Source: Pirellulales bacterium (GTDB lineage: Bacteria > Planctomycetota > Planctomycetia > Pirellulales > UBA1268). Taken from it: a DNA stretch of 64,000 nt. The stretch lies in assembly GCA_044358905.1 (NCBI GenBank), contig JBIKND010000001.1:5476-69475 (forward strand), given 5' to 3'. Shown one piece after another: positions 11,028-55,732 of the stretch. A model generated the notes under the pieces. It was not told where the DNA came from, made no database searches, and saw nothing but the letters and a program-made list of their open reading frames with translations. Numbering within the stretch: the stretch's first letter is position 1; the number at the start of each line of letters is the position of its first letter. A program made the position numbers and the translations under genes.

Positions 11028-11393
11028 GGAAGCTGTTTCCGAAGGGAGGTGAAAGGGTCGGGGGCGATCGGGCCGCGGCCGGACGGGGCGGCAGGGGCGG
11101 GCCGGTGCAAGTATTGCCCACCGGCGATGGTTTCGCACCCGGCCGTCCACCGGATGCGAAATCGGGGGCAGGGGCTCTTTCTCCCAGGAAAATCGCACGG
11201 CCAGCCGGGTTCGACCGTGGGTCGGGGGGTGCCCCTGCCACGTCTCCGGACGTTCTCTTCGGCCCTCCGGGCAATGCTGTTCGTCACGGCACGTGCTTCA
11301 TTGCGATGGAAGCCCCCGGCGGAAGCCGGGGGACTCCGCGTTCCGCGACTTCCCGCCCGCAAGGCAAAACGGTCGCGCCCAAAAACCCGGTGT

Positions 11394-11448: not shown

Positions 11449-12567
11449 CTACCTGGGCCCAGCGGCTGCCTCGAGGGCCGCCCGGAGGCTGGCGGGGTCG
11501 GCCTCCCGGAGCCGGTCGAGGTGGCCCCGGGCGGCGGGGAGCGGGCAGGCCGCCAGGTAGCCGGCGACGGCCCGGCGGACGAGCGGGTCGTCGCGGCCCA
11601 GCGGCCCCCAGAGGGCGGCGACGGCGTCCACCGCCGACCAGTCCTGGTAGCGGGCCAGGTCCACGGCCGCCTCGGCCGCGACCGCGGGGTTGGCGAGGAG
11701 CCGGGCCGTCGCGTCGGCGACCCGCTTGCGGGGCACCGTGGCCCCGAGGTTTTCCCACGCGAACCGCAGCACCGCCAAGGCGTGCCGAGCGTCGCCCGCG
11801 CGCGTGCCGCCGGCGAGCAGGCCGCGGGTCGCCAGGTAGTCGAGCCCCGCCTCGCCCTCGGCAACCACGATGCCGGCGAGCACGCCGTCGAAACCCGCCC
11901 GGAGATCCGTGCCCGGGGCCTCGGCTGCCCGCCGGAGTACGCCGAGGTGGCGTTCGCGCACGATCGACTCCGGTTCAGCGGCGGCGACAATCCCGAGCGC
12001 CAGCCCGTAGAACCCGCGCCGCCGCTGGTCGATCCCCGGCTCCTCGATCCACTGCTGCAGCTTGTCCGCGTCGAACGATTCCGCCGCATCCCGCACGGCC
12101 GTGAACGACGCGAGGCCGAACTCCGTGAAGGCGTCGGCCGCGATCGCCGGGTCGCGATGCTCGAGGCGGGCGGCGTACCAGGCGAGCCTCCGCGCGGCCG
12201 GATCCGCCGTCGCCGGCGCCGCGGCCACGTGGGCCAGGAGCGCCTCGTCGGCAGAGACGGCCTCCCAGCCGGCCGTGTCGCCGAAGACCAGCGCTGTGCC
12301 CGCGACCGGCCCGGCGACCCGCGCGGCCACGATGTCGCCCACGACAGCCCGGCCGCGGATCGCCTGCCGCACGGCGAAGGGCTGCGCGAGGCGACCGGCC
12401 TCATCCCGCGCGGCCGGTCCTGCCGACTCGCCCACCGCCGTCACGTCAGCCGCGTCGCGCCGCTGGGCGAGCGAGCGGCCCACGACGCCGCAGAACGGAC
12501 AGGCCACGGCCGCAACGGCGGGCCAGACGAAGGCCACCACACAACACAGCCATCGTCGGCCGCTCAT
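11449..12567 (-). CDS. Secreted CPFC-motif helical-repeat (HEAT-like) protein, paralog 2
   Basis: Lies inside ORF 11449..12804. I trimmed it to MSGRRWLCCVVAFVWPAVAAVA|CPFC (ATG at 12567). It aligns by eye along its length with the product of 16986..18500. Shared blocks are DAFTEF/DAYDEF, KLxxWIExP, RRRxxY, LRF, DLARxQDWSxVD and YLxACPLP. Confidence 0.7.
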   Translation of the reverse strand: MSGRRWLCCVVAFVWPAVAAVACPFCGVVGRSLAQRRDAADVTAVGESAGPAARDEAGRLAQPFAVRQAIRGRAVVGDIVAARVAGPVAGTALVFGDTAGWEAVSADEALLAHVAAAPATADPAARRLAWYAARLEHRDPAIAADAFTEFGLASFTAVRDAAESFDADKLQQWIEEPGIDQRRRGFYGLALGIVAAAEPESIVRERHLGVLRRAAEAPGTDLRAGFDGVLAGIVVAEGEAGLDYLATRGLLAGGTRAGDARHALAVLRFAWENLGATVPRKRVADATARLLANPAVAAEAAVDLARYQDWSAVDAVAALWGPLGRDDPLVRRAVAGYLAACPLPAARGHLDRLREADPASLRAALEAAAGPR

Positions 12568-12622
12568 ACGGGTCACACTTGCATGGTTACGCAGGTCAGC
12601 TGCCTGGTCGCTGCGACGGGTA

Positions 12623-12754
12623 GGGGATGCCCGTGCCCCGAGAGCCGGCGTAGCTGACCAGCGTAGGCATGGATGCCGGAGCGCAGGCAGCTCCGAGTGA
12701 GCGGAGCCCACGATGGGCGCAGCGAATGTCCGGCGACGGGGCACGGGCATCCCC
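12623..12754 (-). repeat. Structured intergenic element, copy A (REP-like or ncRNA candidate), in sense with the flanking minus-strand genes
   Basis: It has an 18-bp perfect terminal inverted repeat (ggggatgcccgtgccccg at 12623-12640, cggggcacgggcatcccc at 12737-12754). Its reverse complement aligns without gaps to 52180-52309, with a 96-nt interior in both copies. Confidence 0.7.
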
Positions 12755-12787
12755 GCACCAACCCGCGATGGGATCGCGTGCGGCCGC

Positions 12788-13459
12788 TCACGCGTACATC
12801 GCATCCGGGTTCCGCTCCCGCTGCATCCGCTGCCGCCAGTAGGGCACCGTGCAGAGGAGCAGCTTGCCGGTGCCCTCGTAGGAGTAGGCGAGCTTCTGCC
12901 CCGAGAGCCAATAACTGACGAACGACCGGGCCGGCCGCCGGATCCGCAGCCGGATGCCGGCCGTGCGGGCGATCACGAACGCGCCGTCGGCCACGAGTCG
13001 GTCGTTCTTCAGTTCGACCTCCTCGACGGGGCCGTCCACGGCGAGCACCACGTGCCCCTGCCCCTTGAGCGCGGTCTTGTACCAGAAGAGCCCCTGATCG
13101 GCCCACCAACTGGTCCACATCGGCTCCCGGTGCACGGAGAGCTTCACCTCACCGTCGCTGGCCCAGAAGCACTTGCCGTCGAGGATCCACCGATCGCCCG
13201 GCTTGATGTTCATGACGTGGTAGCCGCCGAGCGTCGAGTCGAGCCACACGCTGCCCGTGCCGTGGTAGCGCGGCCGCAGGGGCGACTCATCGGAAAACAG
13301 CGACACCCACCAGGTCTTGAGCGTCGGAAAGGGCACGTCCATCGCGATCGTGCCCTTCATGTGATTGAGGGCCCCGCGCTCCGTGCGCACGTCGTCATTC
13401 TTCAGGTCCACCCGGACCCAGCGCATCCCCTCGCTCGATTCGACCTCAAACCGCGCCAT
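12788..13459 (-). CDS. AIM24 family protein (DUF124/TIGR00266-like)
   Basis: Lies inside ORF 12788..13885. I trimmed it to MARFEVESSEGMRWVRVDL (ATG at 13459). The beta-rich AIM24-like sequence includes GTGSVWLDSTLGGYHVMNIKPGDRWILDGKCFWASDGEVKL. It overlaps the upstream gene by 14 nt. Confidence 0.8.
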   Translation of the reverse strand: MARFEVESSEGMRWVRVDLKNDDVRTERGALNHMKGTIAMDVPFPTLKTWWVSLFSDESPLRPRYHGTGSVWLDSTLGGYHVMNIKPGDRWILDGKCFWASDGEVKLSVHREPMWTSWWADQGLFWYKTALKGQGHVVLAVDGPVEEVELKNDRLVADGAFVIARTAGIRLRIRRPARSFVSYWLSGQKLAYSYEGTGKLLLCTVPYWRQRMQRERNPDAMYA

Positions 13460-26627: not shown

Positions 26628-27433
26628 CGCAGCCACCGGCTCCCGCGCGGCGGGTCGCGGTGCCCGACCTGGCGGCGGCCCGACGGGCGAGCCGGCCGAT
26701 CACGATGGTCACGGCCTACGACTGGCCGACCGGCCGGCTGGCCGACGAAGCGGGCGTCGATTGCGTGCTCGTCGGAGACAGCGTGGCGATGGTGGTCGCG
26801 GGCCGATCCTCGACGATCCCCGCCACGCTCGAGCAGATGATCTACCACGGCGAGATCGTGGCCCGGGCCGTGCGCCGCGCGCTGGTCGTGGTCGACCTGC
26901 CGTTCCCGTTGCAGCACCTCGGCGTCCGCACGGCGGTGGAATCCTGCGCCCGGATCCTCAAGGAGACCGGCTGCCAGGCGGTGAAGCTCGAGGGCACGGC
27001 CGGGCAGGCCGACGTCATCGCCGGCCTCGTGGCCGCCGGCATCCCGGTCATGGCCCACGTCGGCCTGCGACCCCAGGCGGTGCACCAGCTCGGGGGCTAC
27101 CGGATGCAACGCGATCTCGACGCCGTCGTGGCCGACGCCCAGGCCGCAGCCGACGCCGGTGCGTTCGCCGCGGTTCTCGAATGCATTCCTCGGGAGGCGG
27201 CCCGCGTCGTCACCGCGACGGTCGGCATTCCCACGATCGGCATCGGCGCCGGCCCCGACTGCGACGGCCAGGTGCTCGTGATGCACGACCTGCTGGGTCT
27301 GTCGTTCGACCGCGTGCCGAAGTTCGTGCGGGCCTACGCCGACGCCAAGGCCACGCTCGGGGACGCGATCGCCCGCTGGCGGACCGATGTGGAGCGCCGC
27401 GCGTTTCCCGGGCCCGCAGAAACGCTCGGCTGA
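26624..27433 (+). CDS. panB: 3-methyl-2-oxobutanoate hydroxymethyltransferase
   Basis: 269 aa. Typical sequences ITMVTAYDWPTGRLADEAGVDCVLVGDSVAMVV, VKLEG and IGIGAGPDCDGQVLV are present. Confidence 0.95.
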   Translation: MTQPPAPARRVAVPDLAAARRASRPITMVTAYDWPTGRLADEAGVDCVLVGDSVAMVVAGRSSTIPATLEQMIYHGEIVARAVRRALVVVDLPFPLQHLGVRTAVESCARILKETGCQAVKLEGTAGQADVIAGLVAAGIPVMAHVGLRPQAVHQLGGYRMQRDLDAVVADAQAAADAGAFAAVLECIPREAARVVTATVGIPTIGIGAGPDCDGQVLVMHDLLGLSFDRVPKFVRAYADAKATLGDAIARWRTDVERRAFPGPAETLG

Positions 27434-27672
27434 AGCGGACGCCGGCCAGGATGGCGGCATGCCCGTGCGCCGTTCCAGGTCACATGCCGAACGACCGTCC
27501 GCCCGGATGGCGGACCCGTCGCCGCCGGAGGGCGGCACAAGCGGACGCCGGCCAGGATGGCGGCGTGCCCGTGCGCCGTCCCAGGTCACATGCCGAACGA
27601 CCGTCCGCCTGGATGGCGGACCCGTCGCCGCCGGAGGGCGGCACAAGCGGACGCCGGCCAGGATGGCGGCGT
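27433..27672 (+). repeat. 106-bp tandem repeat, 2.26 copies, with three hairpins per unit
   Basis: Units span 27433-27538, 27539-27644 and 27645-27672 (partial). Units 1 and 2 differ at 3 of 106 positions. The hairpins are cggcatg...catgccg, gtccgcc-cggat-ggcggac and gccgcc-ggag-ggcggc. Confidence 0.9.
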
Positions 27673-27681
27673 CCGCGCTCT

Positions 27682-36646: not shown

Positions 36647-39298
36647 TCAAAAGTCCGCCGGCTTCGCCGCTCGCCTCTGCCGTTCCTGCAAGGCCGCCGG
36701 GATCACGAAGTCTTCGGTCGGGCTGCCGTCGGGCTCGGCGATCAGTTCGAGTTTCTCGACGAGCGGGATCTCGACGTCCTCCTTCTCGATCAGGGCCGAG
36801 AGCGTCTTGGGGGAGATTTTTTCGAGGTTCGGCAGGGCGAGTTTGCCCTGGCGGGTGGCGAGCGCCGTGGCCACGGCGACGGAATCGGGAGCCGAAAAGG
36901 CCGTCAGCCCGGGGAGCGAGCCGGTCCAGGCCTTGCTGGCCGCAAGCGCCTTCGCGGCATCGGCGTCGAGGGCCGCGAGCCCGTCGAGGTGGAGTTGGCC
37001 TTCGAAGCCGACGAGCACCTCCGCGGTGTCGCCGTCGAGCGTGGTCAGGGCGTCGAGGTGCAGTTGGCGAGCATTTGAGCCACCTCCACAACTGATCATC
37101 AAACGTCCGCACATTGTCCCGCCGGGAGGCCGCGGTCGCCCGACCGTCAGTTCATGGCCCCGGAACGCGACCAACGCCTTGGCCGCGTCGGCGTCGAGCC
37201 TGGTCACGCCACGCAGCGTGAGGTACTGGCCGCGGAAGAGCGCGAGGGCCCGCGCCGCGTCGGCATCGAGCTGCGGGAGCCCGTCGATGGTGAGGAACCC
37301 GCGTTTGTGAGCCGAGAGCTCCCGGGCCACGTCGGCGGGCAGCGTCTGCAGGCCGTCGAGGTGCAGCGGGCCCTCGAACGCCGCCAACGCCCCGGCCGTG
37401 GCGGCGTCGATCGACGGCAGCCGGTCGAGGTGCAGCCAGGACCTCGCGTGGCCCGCGAGCGCCCGGGCGGTTTCGGCGTCGAGCGTGGTCAGGTTTTGCA
37501 GATACCCGACCCAGGCCGGGCATGCCGCGAGGCTTCGCGCCGCGGCGGGATCGAGCGTGGTCAGGCCATCGACGTAGAACCGTTTGCCCTGGAAGGCGGC
37601 AAGCGCCGCGGCGGCGGCGGCGTCGAGCCCGGTGACGCCGCTGAGATGCAGGGCCTCGCCCGCAAACCCGGCGAGCGCCCGGGCCGTGGCGGCATCAACC
37701 GCCCGCACGCCGTCGAGCCGCAGCTCGCCCTTGAACGCCGCGAGCCCCGTGGCGGCCTCGGCGGAGACCGCGGTCAGGCCGCGGAGATCGAGACACTTCC
37801 CACCGAACTGCGCTAGCGCCCCGGCGGCGGCGGGCGTGACTGCGGTCAACTTCGACAGGTCGCCATCCCACGCCGGCACGCGGACGAGCGCCTCCGCCGT
37901 GGCCGCATCGAGCGTGGTCAGGCCGCGGACGGAGAACTCCCGGCCCTTGAAAGCGGCGAGCGCCCGCGCGGCCTCCGCGTCGAGCGTGGTGATGGAGTGC
38001 AGGCGACCGTCCCACGCCGGCGATGCGGCGATCTTCCTCGCGGCCTCCGCGTCGAGCGTGGTGATGGAGTGCAGGCGACCGTCCCACGCCGGCGACGCGG
38101 CGAGCGCTGCGGCCGTCTCGGCATCGAGCGTGGTCAACTGGCCGACGTAGAACTGCTTGCCCCCGAGCCGGGCCAGGGCCCGGGCCGTCGCCGGATCCGG
38201 ATTCTTGATTCCGCCGAGCGACAGTTTTCCCCCCGTGAACGCCTCGAAGGCCCGGGCGACGTCGGGAGGGAGCGTCTTCAGCCCGTCGAGCGACAACTGC
38301 TCGCCCTCGAAGCCGGCGAGTGCCTGGGCCGTCGCCGCGTCGAGCGTCTTCAGCCCGTAGAGCGACAACTGGCCGGGGAGCGCGGCAAGGGCACCCGCCG
38401 TGGCGGCGTCGAGCGATCGCAGCCCTCCCAGATCCAGCCGCTTCCGATACCCGGCCAAGGCTTTGGCCGAGTCGGCGTCGAGCGTTTTGAGGCCGTCGAG
38501 CCTGAGCGAATCACCTCGATACCGCGCGAGCTGTGCGGCGGTCGGCGCGTCGATGGCCTCGAGGCCGTCCAGGGAGAGCGTCTCGCCCTCGAAGGTCGCC
38601 ATCGCCCGGGCCGCGTCGGCGGAGAGCGTCTTCAGGCCGCCGAGCGTGAGCAAATCACATCGACACTCCGCGAGCCGTTCGGCGGTCGGCGCGTCGAGCG
38701 TCGCGAGCCCATCGAGATCGAGCCAACCGTTTTCGTATTTCGCCAGCGCCTCCGCGGCGTCGGCGGAGAGCGTTTTGAGGCCGCCGAGATCGAGATGGAG
38801 TCCCTTGAAACTGGCGAGCGCCCGGGCCGTCTCGGCATCGAGCGAGCGCAGGCCCCCGAGGCCGAGGTCTCCCGTGAATGCCGCGAGCGTCGCGGCGGTC
38901 TTCCTGTCGATGCCCGTCAGGCCCTGGAGCGTCAGTTCTAGCGCGGTCGAGCCGGCGAGCGCCTCAAGGCTGGCGGCATCGAGATGCGCGAGGCCGTCGA
39001 GGTGGAGGCAGCCCTTGAAATCCGCGAGCGCCGCGGCGACGTCGGCGTCGAGCGTGGCCAGACCGCGGAGATACAGCCGCCCGTCGAACGCCGCCAGGGC
39101 CCGCGCGGTGTCGCGGTCGATCCGCCCGAGGCCGTCGAGCACCAGGGGAGTGGAACGCTCATGGTTCGCGATCAGACGCCGGGCCTCGTCGGCCGACAGG
39201 CTCTTGAGCTTTCGCGCGTCCGGCGGGCCGGCGACGACGGCCGGCACACCAGCCGCGAGTGCCAGCAACACGGCTCCTGACCGCAGAACGGATCGCAT
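36647..39298 (-). CDS. Secreted protein made of about 30 tandem 24-aa leucine-rich-type repeats (LxLxGLxxLDAxxAxALAxFxG), plus a conserved C-terminal module
   Basis: Lies inside ORF 36647..39367. I trimmed it to MRSVLRSGAVLLALAAGVPAVVAG (ATG at 39298). A 72-bp periodicity is visible in the DNA. The C-terminal module is LALPNLEKISPKTLSALIEKEDVEIPLVEKLELIAEPDGSPTEDFVIP. Confidence 0.8.
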   Translation of the reverse strand: MRSVLRSGAVLLALAAGVPAVVAGPPDARKLKSLSADEARRLIANHERSTPLVLDGLGRIDRDTARALAAFDGRLYLRGLATLDADVAAALADFKGCLHLDGLAHLDAASLEALAGSTALELTLQGLTGIDRKTAATLAAFTGDLGLGGLRSLDAETARALASFKGLHLDLGGLKTLSADAAEALAKYENGWLDLDGLATLDAPTAERLAECRCDLLTLGGLKTLSADAARAMATFEGETLSLDGLEAIDAPTAAQLARYRGDSLRLDGLKTLDADSAKALAGYRKRLDLGGLRSLDAATAGALAALPGQLSLYGLKTLDAATAQALAGFEGEQLSLDGLKTLPPDVARAFEAFTGGKLSLGGIKNPDPATARALARLGGKQFYVGQLTTLDAETAAALAASPAWDGRLHSITTLDAEAARKIAASPAWDGRLHSITTLDAEAARALAAFKGREFSVRGLTTLDAATAEALVRVPAWDGDLSKLTAVTPAAAGALAQFGGKCLDLRGLTAVSAEAATGLAAFKGELRLDGVRAVDAATARALAGFAGEALHLSGVTGLDAAAAAALAAFQGKRFYVDGLTTLDPAAARSLAACPAWVGYLQNLTTLDAETARALAGHARSWLHLDRLPSIDAATAGALAAFEGPLHLDGLQTLPADVARELSAHKRGFLTIDGLPQLDADAARALALFRGQYLTLRGVTRLDADAAKALVAFRGHELTVGRPRPPGGTMCGRLMISCGGGSNARQLHLDALTTLDGDTAEVLVGFEGQLHLDGLAALDADAAKALAASKAWTGSLPGLTAFSAPDSVAVATALATRQGKLALPNLEKISPKTLSALIEKEDVEIPLVEKLELIAEPDGSPTEDFVIPAALQERQRRAAKPADF

Positions 39299-51284: not shown

Positions 51285-52163
51285 ATGAGCATCCTCGTCA
51301 ATCGCGACACCCGCGTCATCTGCCAGGGCATCACCGGCAAGGTCGGTGAGTTCCACACCCGTGGCTGCCTCGACTACGGCACGCGGATGGTGGGCGGCGT
51401 CACCCCCGGCAAGGCGGGCGAGACCGTCGCCGGCCTGCCGGTCTTCAACACCGTCGCCGAGGCGAAGGACGCCACCGGGGCCAACGCCACGATGATCTTC
51501 GTGCCGCCGGCCTTCGCGGCCGACGCGATCCTCGAGGCGGTCGCCGCCGGCATCGAGCTGGTGATCGCCATCACCGAGGGCATCCCCGTGCTCGACATGG
51601 CCCGCGTGCTGCCGGTCGTCAAGGATTCTGACAGCCGGCTCATCGGGCCCAACTGCCCGGGTGTGATCACGCCGGCCGAGTGCAAGATCGGCATCATGCC
51701 CGGCTACATCCACACGCCCGGCCACGTCGGCGTGATGAGCCGTTCCGGCACGCTCACCTACGAGGCCGTGTGGCAGCTCACGCAGCTCGGCCACGGCCAG
51801 AGCACCTGCGTCGGCCTCGGCGGCGACCCGCTCGTCGGCTCGTCGTTCATCGATATCCTCGCGCTCTTCCAGGCCGACCCGGACACGCACGCCATCCTCA
51901 TGATGGGCGAGATCGGCGGGAGTGCGGAGGAGGAGGCGGCCGAGTATGTGAAGCACCACGTCACCAAGCCCTGCGCCGCCTTCATCGCCGGCCGCACGGC
52001 GCCGCCGGGCAAGCGGATGGGCCACGCCGGAGCGATCATCTCCGGCGGCAAGGGCACGGCGGAGGCCAAGCTCGCGGCCCTGGCCGATGCGGGCATCGAG
52101 ATCGCGGACAGCCCGGCGGACATGGGGGCGGCGCTGGTGCGCGCGATCGCGCGGCGGGCGTAG
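51285..52163 (+). CDS. sucD: Succinate--CoA ligase alpha subunit
   Basis: 292 aa. It has [30 protein letters not shown], and the phosphohistidine-loop context [14 protein letters not shown]. Confidence 0.95.
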
Positions 52164-52179
52164 GCCGGCCGCGGGGGTC

Positions 52180-52309
52180 GGGCTGCCCGTGCCCCATCGC
52201 CGGACGTTCGCTGCGGGCATCCTGCCCTTCGCTCACTCGGAGGTGGCTGCGCTCTCGCCCTCCGGGCTTCGCTGGCCACCTACGCCGGCTCCTGGGGCAC
52301 GGGCAGCCC
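52180..52309 (+). repeat. Structured intergenic element, copy B (REP-like or ncRNA candidate), in sense with sucD
   Basis: It has a 17-bp perfect terminal inverted repeat (gggctgcccgtgcccca at 52180-52196, tggggcacgggcagccc at 52293-52309). It begins 16 nt after the sucD stop. Its 96-nt interior aligns without gaps to the reverse complement of 12641-12736. Confidence 0.7.
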
Positions 52310-52501
52310 TCCTCCATCGAGCAATCAGGCGCACGCCCGCCTCCAGGCCTGTGGGGTGGGTGGAAGGCATGGTCGATCGCTGGCAGCCGCGTGATGCGCC
52401 GGGCTGGCACCATTTGCCGCCGGGAACGTTTGGTGGTCGAACCGCATCTCATAGGCTGACACCCCGCGTTTCACCGCCACCCGACTCGGAGACCCCGCCC
52501 C

Positions 52502-54322
52502 ATGCCCGCTCGCGCCGCCGTTTGCGTCTGGCTCGCCGTAACGACCGTGGCCGCGCTCGCGAGCGAGCCTGCAGCGCCGGCCGATGGGCCGATCCGCGAC
52601 CCTGCGGGCGTGAAGGGCTACGCCGTCCACGAGTGGGGCGTGTTCACGATCCATCCCGACCTGGAGATGGCCAACGCGGCGCTGGCCGCGGAGTGGGCCG
52701 ACTGCCCGAAGGAGCTTTACCGCACCGAGCCACCGAACCTGCGAAACCTGCCGTGGCGGGGGACGGTGGCAAAGCCGATCGTCTACTTCCACTGGGACGG
52801 CGAGCAGCCGCCGCCGGAGCAGGGCCTGAAGATGAAGGTGCGGTTTCCAGACGGGCGGCCGGTGATCTGGTGGCCGGCGAGCGAGGAAGGGGCAGGAACC
52901 GCGCCGGCTGGTCAGGAGGTGACCGACTCCCTCTCCTGGCGGCTCTTCCTGCGGAAGCCGCCGAAGGGGGATGGCCCGGCCGGCGCGCGACCGCGCACGC
53001 CGCAGGTCGCCGCCGACCATTGGTACGCGCAGGCACGGACGGTGAAGGCCGAGCCGGTGTTTTCATACGGCGGTCATAACCACATAGGCACCTTCATCGA
53101 CGCCGAGCAGTTCGTCTACTACGACGGCCTGATGACGCCGCTGGCGTTCCTGAAGGCACGCCGCACACCGGCGGGCGCGATCGTCCTCGACGCGAAGGCC
53201 CCCTATCCGCTCCACGACCTGTGGTGCATCGACCGCACCGGCAACTCGGCAAAACTCGCCCGCGTGCCGCTGGTGCCGCCGGGCGAGAAAACGCTCGACC
53301 TCGACTGGAAAACCGTGGCCGACGACGACTGGCATGCCGCCACGGCGGAGGCGCTCGCCGCCGAGCTCGAACAGACGGGCCTGCACGCCGACGAGGCCCG
53401 GTCGCTCGTCGCCATCTGGCAGCCGGGATTTTTTCACGCGCCGGGCCTGACGCTCTTCTATCGGCTGCCGCAGCGGGAGTACGACCGGGTGACGACGCTC
53501 GCGCTCGACCCGCTGCCGGAGACGCTCGTCCGCGTGGGGATCGTGCACCATGCGCACGCCGAACCGGAGCGGGTGGCCGGTGAAAAACCGGCGGCGGCAG
53601 GCGAGCCGGCGGGCGGGCGGGGCGGCCCGCCGGCTGGCATGAAACCCCTGCGACTGGAAAAGCGGCTGACGGCCGCCGACGCCACGAAACTGGCCACCGC
53701 CGATCACGACCTCTGCCTGTTCGGGGGCTCGGAACTGACGGCCGACGTGGTCGCACGGCTCGCCCCGCACCGACACCGGCTGACGATCGTCGGGCCCTGC
53801 GCGATCGACGACGCCGCGGCCCGGGGCTTGGCCGGCCACGCCGGGCCGGTCTCCGTGCAGGGTATCGCGGTCGAGTCGCCGGAACTCGCCCGAAAACTGC
53901 TCGACGATCCTGTGCGCGGCGGCATGAACGGCGCCGCCGCAATGTCGGCCGAGGTCGCGGCGCTCGCCTGCGCTCACCCGAACTGGACCGGTGATTTTTC
54001 CGGGTTGAAAACGCTCTCTCCCGGCGTGGCCGAGGCCCTCGTCGCGGCGAAGAAGTGGGATGGCCGGTTGCCGGGCGTGACGGCATTCACGGCCGCCGAC
54101 TCGGTCGAGGTGGCGAAGGCGCTGGCAAAACGCACGGGCCCGCTCGCCCTCCCGAACCTCAAAAAAATCTCCCCCAAGACGCTCTCGGCCCTGATCGAGA
54201 AGGCAGACGTCGACATCCCGCTCGTCGAGACGCTCGAACTGATCCCCGAGCCCGACGGCAGCCCGACCGACGACTTCGTGGTGCCGGAAGGTTTTCAGCA
54301 GCGGCAGAAGCAAAACAGGTAG
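52502..54322 (+). CDS. Secreted hypothetical protein (606 aa) with an unknown N-terminal domain and a C-terminal leucine-rich-type region ending in the conserved ISPKTL...PEPDGSPTDDF module
   Basis: The signal is MPARAAVCVWLAVTTVAALASEP. The C-terminal 60 aa are nearly identical to the C-terminus of the 36647..39298 product and to the fragment at 55098..55676. Confidence 0.75.
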   Translation: MPARAAVCVWLAVTTVAALASEPAAPADGPIRDPAGVKGYAVHEWGVFTIHPDLEMANAALAAEWADCPKELYRTEPPNLRNLPWRGTVAKPIVYFHWDGEQPPPEQGLKMKVRFPDGRPVIWWPASEEGAGTAPAGQEVTDSLSWRLFLRKPPKGDGPAGARPRTPQVAADHWYAQARTVKAEPVFSYGGHNHIGTFIDAEQFVYYDGLMTPLAFLKARRTPAGAIVLDAKAPYPLHDLWCIDRTGNSAKLARVPLVPPGEKTLDLDWKTVADDDWHAATAEALAAELEQTGLHADEARSLVAIWQPGFFHAPGLTLFYRLPQREYDRVTTLALDPLPETLVRVGIVHHAHAEPERVAGEKPAAAGEPAGGRGGPPAGMKPLRLEKRLTAADATKLATADHDLCLFGGSELTADVVARLAPHRHRLTIVGPCAIDDAAARGLAGHAGPVSVQGIAVESPELARKLLDDPVRGGMNGAAAMSAEVAALACAHPNWTGDFSGLKTLSPGVAEALVAAKKWDGRLPGVTAFTAADSVEVAKALAKRTGPLALPNLKKISPKTLSALIEKADVDIPLVETLELIPEPDGSPTDDFVVPEGFQQRQKQNR

Positions 54323-54415
54323 CCATGCTGCGGGTGCCGCGAACCGCGGCCCCGGGTGTCCCCTTGCCACGCCGGTCGGTTTGCCGTGTGTTCACAGGTC
54401 ATGTACACTGGTCAC

Positions 54416-54640
54416 ATGAAAATCTCCGCTTCGGCATTCAAGGCCCGCTGCCTGCGGCTCCTCGACCAAGTCAATCGCACGGGCGAGGAACTGGTCATTC
54501 TCAAGCGCGGCCGTCCGGTCGCCCGCCTCGTGCCTGCCCGCGAGGACAAACCATGGCTGGCGCTTCGCGGCCGCGGGGCGTTCGTCGGTGATCCATTCGC
54601 GCCCGTGATTACCGAGGCGGAAATCGAAGCCCTGCGATGA
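54416..54640 (+). CDS. Type II antitoxin, Phd/YefM (prevent-host-death) family
   Basis: Lies inside ORF 54356..54640. I trimmed it to MKISASAFKARCLRLLDQVNRTGEELVILKRGRPVARLVP (ATG at 54416). It is 74 aa, and its stop overlaps the vapC ATG (ATGA). Confidence 0.85.
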   Translation: MKISASAFKARCLRLLDQVNRTGEELVILKRGRPVARLVPAREDKPWLALRGRGAFVGDPFAPVITEAEIEALR

Positions 54641-55041
54641 CCAGGCCGCTGCTCGACACGCACACATGGGTCTGGTGGATGCTCGGCGATCCACGGCTGC
54701 CGGCCCGCGAACGCGACCACCTCGACGGGCTGCCTGCGGCGTCTCGGCCGCTGCTCTGCGACATCAGCCTCTGGGAAGTCGCGCTGCTCGTGCAGTTCGG
54801 CCGGCTCGACCTCGCCGACGATCTCGAGACCTGGCTGGGAATCGCCGCGTCGCCCGCCACCGTCGAAATGCAACCGATCACGTCCGCGGCCGTGGCGGCG
54901 ATGACGAAGCTTCCCAGGAGTTTTCACCAGGATCCGGCCGACCGCCTGATCGTGGCGACGGCACGGGCTCTCGACGTGCCCCTGGCCACGCACGATTCGC
55001 GCATCCGGCGGTCACGGCTCGTGCGGCTCTGGCCCGCCTGA
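54637..55041 (+). CDS. vapC: Type II toxin, VapC family PIN-domain ribonuclease
   Basis: 134 aa. The PIN acidic residues appear in context: LLDTH, SLWEV, DPADRLIVATA, THD. Confidence 0.9.
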   Translation: MTRPLLDTHTWVWWMLGDPRLPARERDHLDGLPAASRPLLCDISLWEVALLVQFGRLDLADDLETWLGIAASPATVEMQPITSAAVAAMTKLPRSFHQDPADRLIVATARALDVPLATHDSRIRRSRLVRLWPA

Positions 55042-55097
55042 TCCAGTCGGGAACGTTTCGGGAGTGCGGCGCATCGACGGATGGGCCGGCGTTCCCC

Positions 55098-55676
55098 GTG
55101 GATCGCGTCGACATCCCGCGGCTCCCACATCAGGGAGTATTTCCGCTGGAAAAGCGGCTGACGGCCGCCGAGGCCAGGAAACTGGCCGCCGCCGATCACG
55201 ACCTCCGCCTGTTCGGGGTCTCGGAACTGACGGCCGACGTGGTCGAAAGACTCACCCCGCACCGACATCGGCTGACGCTCGTCGGCCCATGCGAGATCGA
55301 AGCCAGCGCGGCCCGGGCCTTGGCCGCCCATGCCGGGCCCGTGTTCCTGCAAGGAACCAGGCTCGATTCGCCGGACCTCGCCCGCAAACTGCTGGCCGTT
55401 CCTCGGTCTGCTCGATCCGGAATCGACGGCGTCTGCGAAATCTCGGCCGAGGTCGCGGTGGCAACGGCGCTGGCAAAACGCAAGGGCCCGCTCGCCCTCC
55501 CGAACCTGAAAAAAATCTCCCCCAAGACACTCACGGCCCTGATCGAGAAGGCAGACGTCGAGATCCCGCTCGTCGAGACGCTGGAACTGATCCCCGAGCC
55601 CGACGGCAGCTCGACCGACGACTTCGTGATCCCACCGTGGCTTGAATCGAGGCAGAAAGGTCCAAGCCGGCCATGA
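55098..55676 (+). pseudogene. Truncated paralog or remnant of the 3' third of gene 52502..54322. It lacks an ATG and a signal peptide; an in-frame GTG at 55098 is possible.
   Basis: This is the 3' part of ORF 54666..55676. Homology to 53654-54322 begins at 55146 (PLEKRLTAAEARKLAAADHD versus LEKRLTAADATKLATADHD). An internal segment of about 45 aa is missing. The 5' part of the listed ORF is an out-of-frame overlap with vapC. Confidence 0.45.
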
Positions 55677-55732
55677 ACGGGCCCGGCTGACTGCCGTGTG
55701 GCTCTCGCGGGTCGCCGATCTACACTGGTGGC

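Follow-up and report, generated by a model that had tools for sequence, protein, structure and literature searches.

A structured palindrome behind sucD of a Pirellulales bacterium as a probable member of a many-copy, REPIN-like repeat family

Directly downstream of sucD in a Pirellulales genome lies a palindromic element of 130 nt that folds into a branched structure, and the question raised by this locus is whether such an element is an RNA that serves the gene in front of it or a piece of dispersed DNA that happens to have come to rest there. The element occupies positions 52180–52309 of a 64,000-nucleotide stretch of contig JBIKND010000001.1 (this whole stretch, at its full length, is referred to as the window), and a second copy lies in the same window behind a gene of the AIM24 family. 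A first-pass annotation of the window had recorded both copies and, from their compensatory substitutions and their shared sense orientation, had argued for a function at the RNA level. We find that the element after sucD is not a gene-specific regulatory RNA. The reading that we prefer, with a probability of about 60%, is that it belongs to a clade-specific, previously undescribed, many-copy palindromic repeat of ~130–150 nt that is present in at least 55 species and resembles the repetitive extragenic palindromic (REP) sequences, their hairpin-forming doublets (REPINs), the enterobacterial repetitive intergenic consensus (ERIC) sequences and the miniature inverted-repeat transposable elements (MITEs).

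The two copies in the window, designated A and B, correspond to each other over their entire length. Copy B, on the plus strand from terminal stem to terminal stem at 52180–52309, scores 130.9 bits (E = 8e-24) with the covariance model described below, which spans 52171–52318, and begins 16 nt past the stop codon of sucD (51285–52163). Copy A, on the minus strand at 12624–12753, scores 146.9 bits (model span 12615–12762) and begins 33–34 nt past the stop codon of the AIM24 gene (12788–13459, minus strand; Pfam PF01987, E = 3.6e-29), with a HEAT-repeat gene (11449–12540, minus strand) downstream of it. Both copies are sense-oriented and both lie in tandem gene contexts, so that their position after stop codons is as the first-pass annotation had described it. 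Copy B and the reverse complement of 12624–12753 align without gaps, with identity at 105 of 130 positions; the terminal arms form 17 bp in both copies, and the interiors, of 96 nt each, agree at 75 of 96 positions, which equals the count made by hand in that annotation. The stems that it had singled out are likewise present, namely the hairpins GGGCA-TCC-TGCCC (B) versus GCCCA-TCG-TGGGC (A) and GCCC-TCC-GGGC (B) versus GGCAT-CC-ATGCC (A), and the enclosing stem AGGTGGC/GCCACCT (B) versus AGCTGCC/GGTCAGCT (A). A coding reading was rejected, the differences between A and B falling mostly at codon positions 1 and 2 when the sequence is read directly. No further full copy is found in the 64-kb window.

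Outside the window the element is common. A census with GCCCGTGCCCCNTCGCCGGAC, a single 20-base pattern scanned over one genome per species, returned at least 120 matching stretches from ~55 species-level metagenome-assembled genomes (MAGs) of Pirellulales and Planctomycetes, the counts being of matched stretches and not of copies per genome. The host MAGs are almost all of freshwater origin (Lake Mendota, Loclat, Lac Pavin, Baikal and other lakes). The loci fetched from them (denoted by L numbers) contain, together with the window, 111 near-full copies; the core measures 121–126 nt in 83 of the 98 copies with both arms, and at least nine loci come from one MAG (CAIKWU). The 22 truncated matches to the model all lie at true contig ends, as expected of a repeat that breaks assemblies. 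Some contigs with the element (~70–75% G+C) bear unexpected taxonomic labels, Chitinophagaceae for L011 and L072, and Kuenenia for L018, L021, L024, L030 and others, and these labels likely reflect binning contamination or wrong taxonomy. At the gathering thresholds of Rfam the only match in the whole window is a tRNA, with nothing at the element, and at E ≤ 10 the 301 nt around copy B give two chance-level matches only. A literature search returned no description of the arm sequence in this context, nor of such an element in Planctomycetes, in agreement with the first-pass annotation, which had not recognised the element as any described RNA family.

The fold and its covariation were derived from an alignment of 79 copies, and the covariance model was built from the same 79. 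The consensus structure comprises 48 pairs, with 90.8% of the cells paired, and consists of a 17-bp stem (P1), followed by a P2 stem and a three-way junction bearing two hairpins. In copy B, the 5′ arm of P1 (GGGCTGCCCGTGCCCCA, 52180–52196, plus strand) pairs with the 3′ arm (TGGGGCACGGGCAGCCC, 52293–52309, plus strand). P1 can be extended to ~22 bp; its 17 consensus pairs are formed in 95% of the cells, and two of them show compensatory change. Each of its arms is in itself a mini-palindrome, with the family consensus GGGGC-N7-GCCCC. The second helix, P2, in which GCCGG (52199–52203, plus strand) pairs with CCGGC (52285–52289), is 99% paired and almost invariant. Taken together, P1 and P2 of either side are inverted copies of one ~29-nt REP-like unit, GGGGCTGCCCGTGCCCCG(TC/AGA)GCCGG(A)CGT, and the two ~29-nt arms are separated by a spacer of ~85 nt. 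Judged from the aligned sequences, the architecture is that of a REP doublet, or REPIN, with an unusually long and structured spacer.

The first branch of the three-way junction is the P3 hairpin (helix 3; GGGCA-TCC-TGCCC, 52215–52227, plus strand), in which nine of ten pairs show compensatory change. The other branch is formed by the P4 stem (helix 4; AGGTGGC/GCCACCT, 52241–52281, plus strand), 8–10 bp long in the consensus, inside which lie a 2-bp P5 and the P6 hairpin (helix 6; GCCC-TCC-GGGC, 52257–52267, plus strand). This P4 branch is hypervariable and strongly covarying, with compensatory change in eight of ten pairs of P4 and three of four pairs of P6. Both P3 and P6 carry loops of the CATCC(A)TG type, and conserved T[TG]CGCT motifs flank the two hairpins that bear these loops. 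The unpaired motifs GGACGTTCGC, CGCTCACTC, GCGCTTC, TGCGCT and ACGCCGG are kept as well, and the base composition of the element is ~72% G+C.

The compensatory substitutions noted between the two window copies are real and persist across the 79 copies. The alignment contains 312 double-change cells, compared with 103 ± 7 in shuffled alignments (none of 500 shuffles reaches the observed value), and sliding the partners by 1–3 columns leaves only 26–52 such cells; 23 of the 48 pairs have changed on both sides. The pairs themselves are Watson–Crick in 3367 cells, G:U in 19 (0.5%) and A:C in 78. The search pattern fixed a perfect 5′ arm, and the balance of A:C and G:U was therefore judged outside P1 only, where 15 G:U and 29 A:C cells are found; the A:C excess within P1, which is present because the pattern forced that perfect arm, was discounted as an artefact and not counted in favour of the reverse strand. 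A:C cells correspond to G:U pairs when the opposite strand is read, and they are commoner than G:U cells; folded as RNA, the reverse strand has the greater stability in 73 of 79 copies (whole element) or 75 of 79 (interior only). Relative to shuffled sequences, the sense strands of the two window copies have z-scores of −6.2 and −7.2 and the opposite strands of −9.2 and −7.0; both strands of both copies are far more stable than shuffles, and folding energy alone therefore picks no strand. Scores of the covariance model are 110–165 bits on one strand and ~30 on the other, from which it follows that the element has polarity. The low frequency of G:U pairs, the more stable reverse strand and the mixed orientation of the copies argue against a classic strand-specific RNA.

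The manner in which the paired positions change also bears on what the covariation means. Copies whose flanks are 90–97% identical can be up to 7–8 compensated pairs apart, and 52 comparisons between shared-flank copies yield 172 compensated pairs and 257 one-sided changes. So many compensated pairs at such small divergence did not accumulate stepwise; rather, whole stem modules have been exchanged between copies. A strain contig of the window species (L004) provides a direct instance, in which the P3 hairpin has been replaced by the type found in another copy. Much of the apparent covariation thus arises from the exchange of stem modules between copies.

In other respects, too, the family behaves as repeat DNA. 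Lone 5′ arms occur, and a composite of a 5′ arm and a full copy, with one and the same junction (...GGACGTTCG|G..GGCTCGGGG), is found at five loci with different flanks. Small hairpins or other palindromic repeats have been inserted within several copies, and neighbouring REP-like hairpins and copies of the element form mosaics similar to bacterial interspersed mosaic elements (BIMEs). In a related species (L045), which is 93% identical across sucC–sucD, the sucD region is present twice; one of its B copies is intact, and the middle of the other has given way to a complete element that belongs to another subfamily. The window itself holds a partial third copy of a divergent subfamily, X, at 11216–11273 (plus strand; nhmmer match 11221–11273). 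This is a 5′ fragment composed of the arm (GGGKGTGCCCC... in subfamily X), TCCGGACGTTC and the first hairpin; it is antisense to both neighbouring genes and shares 82% identity with the X element that sits within copy B in L045.

The occupancy of orthologous sites varies between species. The spacer occupied in L100 is empty in the orthologous L104 (225 versus 62 nt, with flanks 86% and 76% identical). The site behind sucD is filled in the window species, in L045 and in the P0001 group (SucD 93% identical), where the element is of a different subfamily and the spacer differs; it is empty in three lineages, relatives with SucD 88–91% identical and spacers of 68–114 nt, in one of which the element is absent from all 21 kb fetched. 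Within the window species, copy B stands behind sucD in all 10 strain contigs (L001–L010); the spacing from AIM24 to the next gene is identical in all 10, and copy A is confirmed by the model in L131.

The great majority of the copies sit close behind the 3′ ends of genes, and divergent, promoter-side spacers are avoided. After removal of shared-flank copies, 80 loci remain, of which 28 are convergent, 23 tandem (14 sense and 9 antisense, a difference that is not significant), 5 divergent and 1 within a gene, the other 23 having a single visible neighbour; the element-free spacers of the same loci comprise 20 convergent, 181 tandem and 79 divergent ones (chi-square p = 3e-16). Among all 111 copies only one lies inside a gene. 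The 5′ side of the element faces the 3′ end of a gene in 70 of 94 cases (median distance 51 nt), compared with 61 of 93 (median 106 nt) for the 3′ side, and the nearest stop codon is co-oriented with the element in 35 of 51 copies (35:16, p = 0.011). This asymmetry may be due in part to the conserved, subfamily-specific 3′ extensions of the element, which are 12–50 nt long. The step from covariation and two sense copies to an RNA-level function, as taken in the first-pass annotation, is accordingly not upheld: the orientation bias is weak, G:U pairs are few and modules are exchanged. That annotation had expected a plain DNA repeat to lack both orientation bias and covariation; the family combines strong covariation with a weak orientation bias and clear repeat-DNA behaviour. 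Of the options that it had listed, a REP-like element fits best.

At the sucD site the element is well kept. A comparison of the window with L045 shows 2 differences in the 130 positions of copy B and 40 in the 293 third codon positions of sucD (Fisher p = 3e-5), so that the copy changes ~9 times more slowly than synonymous sites; the 51 nt beyond copy B contain four differences and two gaps. The comparison of L142 with L143 gives the opposite picture, with 5 of 147 differences in the element and 4 of 882 in sucD. The fixed copy behind sucD could be kept intact either by selection or by homogenisation from other copies.

We propose that the family would spread, and be homogenised, at the DNA level, as REPIN- and MITE-like non-autonomous elements are. 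Such spread would pass through a single-stranded intermediate that folds and is then recognised by an enzyme acting in trans, most likely a tyrosine HUH transposase (Y1, similar to the REP-associated tyrosine transposases, RAYTs), although none was found; recombination or gene conversion among the copies would contribute. Propagation of this kind would be expected to select for strict Watson–Crick pairing and for the conservation of the loops and junctions. Copies that survive in 3′ untranslated regions (3′ UTRs) would probably be co-transcribed with the gene in front, and the GC-rich terminal hairpin would then act as REP and ERIC sequences do, as a barrier at the 3′ end or a stabiliser of the mRNA. 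Such a role of the hairpin, which we regard as possible, could explain why the fixed copy behind sucD is conserved.

Several observations weigh against this proposal. No RAYT match was obtained by phmmer in the six-frame open reading frames (ORFs) of ~0.9 Mb of loci, the query being an approximate E. coli sequence and the test therefore weak, and no transposase is present among the ten recurrent neighbour-gene families scanned, which are ordinary ones (DUF1559, ABC ATPase, sigma-54 activator, sigma-70, DUF1501 and others). Strain-level presence/absence polymorphism was found at neither A nor B, both of which appear fixed, and recent mobility is hence not shown for the window genome. A target-site duplication is not definable, since the flanks are mixed (...TCG|GGG and CCC|CTCG..., CTCG...CTCG, or a stem that continues perfectly into the flanks) and the sole empty site, in L104, is too diverged for its junctions to be read. 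Classical MITEs of the DDE type need no covariation of internal stems, and both the conserved, fixed sucD copy and the 35:16 sense bias are also expected of a functional 3′-UTR RNA. The gene contexts, finally, come from a custom codon-bias caller and not from a validated gene finder; sucD, AIM24 and their neighbours were recovered correctly.

The most serious competitor, which we regard as possible but improbable, is a cis-acting 3′-UTR RNA that serves as a 3′-end protector, a terminator without a U-tract or a processing site, with selection keeping the family and dispersal acting merely as its delivery. It would account for the enrichment right after stop codons, the avoidance of divergent spacers, the excess of co-oriented nearest stops, the slow change of the orthologous sucD copy and the retention of unpaired motifs and loops in a covarying fold, and REP and ERIC elements have been reported to act in this way (PMC3733652). 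It sits poorly, however, with the near-absence of G:U pairs and the greater frequency of A:C, and with the lower stability, in 73 of 79 copies, of the strand that read-through from the nearest gene produces. Nine of the 23 copies in tandem contexts are antisense, no terminator-like T-run follows the element, and fragments, nesting and mosaic arrays are unexpected of a selected RNA; the distance asymmetry, moreover, may stem from the 3′ extensions of some subfamilies. That the element is an independent small RNA gene, or that the similarity is local to the window through duplication or chance, might be suggested by the stable fold and by the presence of only two full copies in the 64 kb, yet this is effectively refuted by the census, with more than 100 copies in ~55 species beside unrelated genes. 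There is no intrinsic terminator or promoter-like site around copy B, no upstream region is conserved across copies, and Rfam offers no match, so that we consider this explanation extremely improbable.

Another alternative, to which we give little credence, is that the element is a DNA-level platform for a host protein, comparable to the BIME/REP sites for gyrase, IHF and DNA polymerase I, with its motifs and loops being read in duplex or cruciform DNA and its function lying in supercoiling or in domain organisation between convergent genes. Convergent spacers are sites at which positive supercoils accumulate, as is generally known from REP and BIME biology, and the preference of the element for such spacers would suit this function. 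Four T[TG]CGCT motifs recur at intervals of ~20–21 nt (as read by eye), two near-identical modules (CGCT–hairpin–CGCT) are kept across subfamilies while their stems vary, and strict Watson–Crick symmetry is suited to a DNA structure. No protein partner is known, however; the clear polarity and the non-palindromic conserved segments are not required for duplex-symmetric binding, and nested or truncated copies would be left unexplained.

The closest resemblance is to REPs and REPINs. REPINs are said, since the 2011 study by Bertels & Rainey, to be REP doublets that form hairpins, and the present element likewise has two inverted REP-like units around a spacer, the whole folding into a long hairpin. 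It is also similar in having many copies per clade, in being extragenic, downstream of genes and between convergent genes, in occurring singly, as dimers and in clusters or mosaics together with other small palindromes, and in persisting at orthologous sites. The differences are that no unpaired GTAG or CGTC tag is conserved at its arms as it is in published REPs, that its ~85-nt spacer has a conserved and covarying three-way-junction fold of its own, that no arm-flanked RAYT gene was found in the ~0.9 Mb of loci with the weak query, and that the canonical GTAG-type REP (CCCGTAGCACAGGTTTTCAACCTGTG) is a separate repeat in the same genomes. GTAG itself, on the reverse strand and adjoining P4, is found in copy B only, the family having GTAT, GTTG, CTCG or CTAT there. 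CGTC follows the 5′ arm in most copies, yet this arm is unlike the published CGTC REPs, which have 8–9-bp stems with A/T at the first positions; the location of published REPs at the 3′ ends of genes and the logic of their dimers match this element (PMC3733652).

With the ERIC sequences or intergenic repeat units (IRUs), 127-bp imperfect palindromes of Enterobacteriaceae and Vibrio, the element shares its length of ~125–130 nt, an imperfect dyad symmetry, an intergenic location in both orientations, transcribed in ERIC and probably so in the element, and size variants made by internal indels at fixed points. Compensatory stem changes are on record for ERIC as well, and we know of no transposase for it. 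The two are unlike in that there is no sequence similarity, that ERIC forms one long hairpin whereas the interior of the element is branched, and that host clade and base composition (~72% G+C in the element) differ. The Correia/NEMIS elements of Neisseria, which are MITEs, are comparable in size (~100–160 nt), in their 17–26 bp terminal inverted repeats and in being non-coding and dispersed; the element, for its part, has 17–22 bp inverted repeats, is shorter than ~300 nt and has no coding capacity. Presence varies between relatives in both, and co-transcription with neighbouring genes, with an inverted-repeat hairpin that affects the mRNA, is frequent in the MITEs and would probably apply to the element. 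Unlike in these MITEs, no target-site duplication such as TA is demonstrable, and the internal stems covary, which DDE-type transposition does not need. Nor was a parent insertion sequence with the same ends found: a lone-arm search for long arm-bounded elements (an 11-mer with one mismatch) returned only noise, because the motif is too common in 70% G+C DNA; no transposase adjoins the variant copies, and the ends of the IS110 element in L008 differ from those of the element.

The attC sites of integrons and the Vibrio cholerae repeats (123–126 nt) form a further point of comparison, being imperfect palindromes of comparable length that lie directly after ORFs in sense orientation and whose structure is kept more than their sequence; attC acts as folded single-stranded DNA. 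The element differs from them in its ends (GGGGCTGCCCG.../...CGGGCAGCCCC), which contain no RYYYAAC/GTTRRRY core sites, in its location behind housekeeping genes (sucCD, lutABC, AIM24, MoxR) with no integrase or cassette array, and in the many copies that are antisense or between convergent genes. An att-site reading was dropped, as the break of synteny and the IS110 element near copy B are ~60 nt downstream of it and not at its edge. The strain-variable region in question begins ~60 nt past copy B, after ...GGGTGGGTGGAA (window 52372–55700, compared in L001–L010). In some strains the sucD region runs directly to lutA; in others, including the window, ~3.4 kb intervene, with a 606-aa protein that has no Pfam match, a PhdYeFM/PIN toxin–antitoxin pair and a 192-aa ORF, and L008 has an IS110-family transposase at the variable point.

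Repeats of other kinds are found within or beside the copies. A mini-palindrome of 25–30 nt (GTCGACCAATCCGC...GCGGATCGGTGCCCG) is inserted at varied internal points and gives rise to ~170-nt variants (L129:4984–5150, L044:7557–7729, L022, L063, L092:943–1112 and L114). In L013 (246–450), a tandem array has a period of 86 nt and joins, in each unit, the element's 5′ arm to a different hairpin (CCCAATCGCGTAAGCGATGGGG), and this same hairpin occurs 25–30 nt upstream of many full copies (L035, L057, L073, L088, L094, L111). A foreign sequence (GTCGAGTAGGCCCGGGGGCT.TCGCCCCC.GGCCTCTC.CAGAACCGGACTTGTGGGTCACACATCCGGCTCTTTGGGT) interrupts two copies, one in L103 (1–119) and one in L109 (3661–4028), and does so at a different internal point in each; in appearance it is the end of a mobile element, the contigs stopping before its genes. 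The canonical GTAG-type REP stands beside many copies, sometimes on both sides and inverted (L125:1020–1290, L141:2560–2620, L024, L031, L098), which indicates that these genomes also hold a classical REP family, of the kind usually tied to a RAYT. In the window, a GC-rich hairpin (AAGCCCCCGGCGGAAGCCGGGGGACTCC, 11311–11335) shares the spacer of the partial copy at 11216–11273, and the near-identical counterpart adjoining an element copy in L092 suggests a further small REP-like family.

One subfamily, with the arm GGGGTCGCCC..., keeps its flanks on both sides (L023, L025, L034, L039, L050, L064, L091, L101, L112, L128). The convergent neighbour in L091 is a DUF1559 gene, DUF1559 being the largest recurrent neighbour family (8 loci), and two of these loci are found in one MAG, so that some copies may have spread by duplication of gene plus repeat. 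Perfectly complementary flanks of 45 nt on the two sides of one copy in L060 (4550–4820) lie at a contig end and were set aside as a probable assembler fold-back through the palindrome, not biology.

The window contains other repeats as well. Three related segments (53654–54311, 55146–55633 and 36673–36951) are 78–93% identical: some of the 3′ region of the 606-aa gene recurs in the downstream 192-aa ORF as a partial duplication, and an inverted copy lies at 36.7 kb. A 106-nt unit is repeated in tandem ~2.4 times at 27427–27677, with 87–95% identity, and a long degenerate array with a 72-nt (24-codon) period at 36930–39138 is probably a repeat-domain protein.

The three-way junction, with hypervariable paired stems, invariant loops and T[TG]CGCT motifs, might be a recognition structure, either the single-strand substrate of an enzyme or a 3′-UTR RNA module, an idea that we hold as speculative and rather unlikely. 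As an enzyme substrate, it would mean that Planctomycetes have a new replicator system of the REPIN kind, lacking the GTAG tag and any recognisable RAYT; as an RNA module, it would be one common to dozens of freshwater Pirellulales species and would account for the slow evolution of the sucD copy. The practical use is in annotation: a repeat that breaks the MAG assemblies of freshwater Planctomycetes now has a name, a structure model and an alignment. The discovery of RNA motifs could be misled by such a family, which displays textbook covariation without evidence of RNA function, and in which "covariation" can arise from the swapping of palindromic modules between copies. In sum, the REP/REPIN/ERIC class gains a variant that is branched and has no tag, from a phylum in which such elements have hardly been described, and, if a dedicated enzyme or a 3′-UTR function is found, the family would offer a tractable system for the study of repeat persistence in uncultured lake bacteria.

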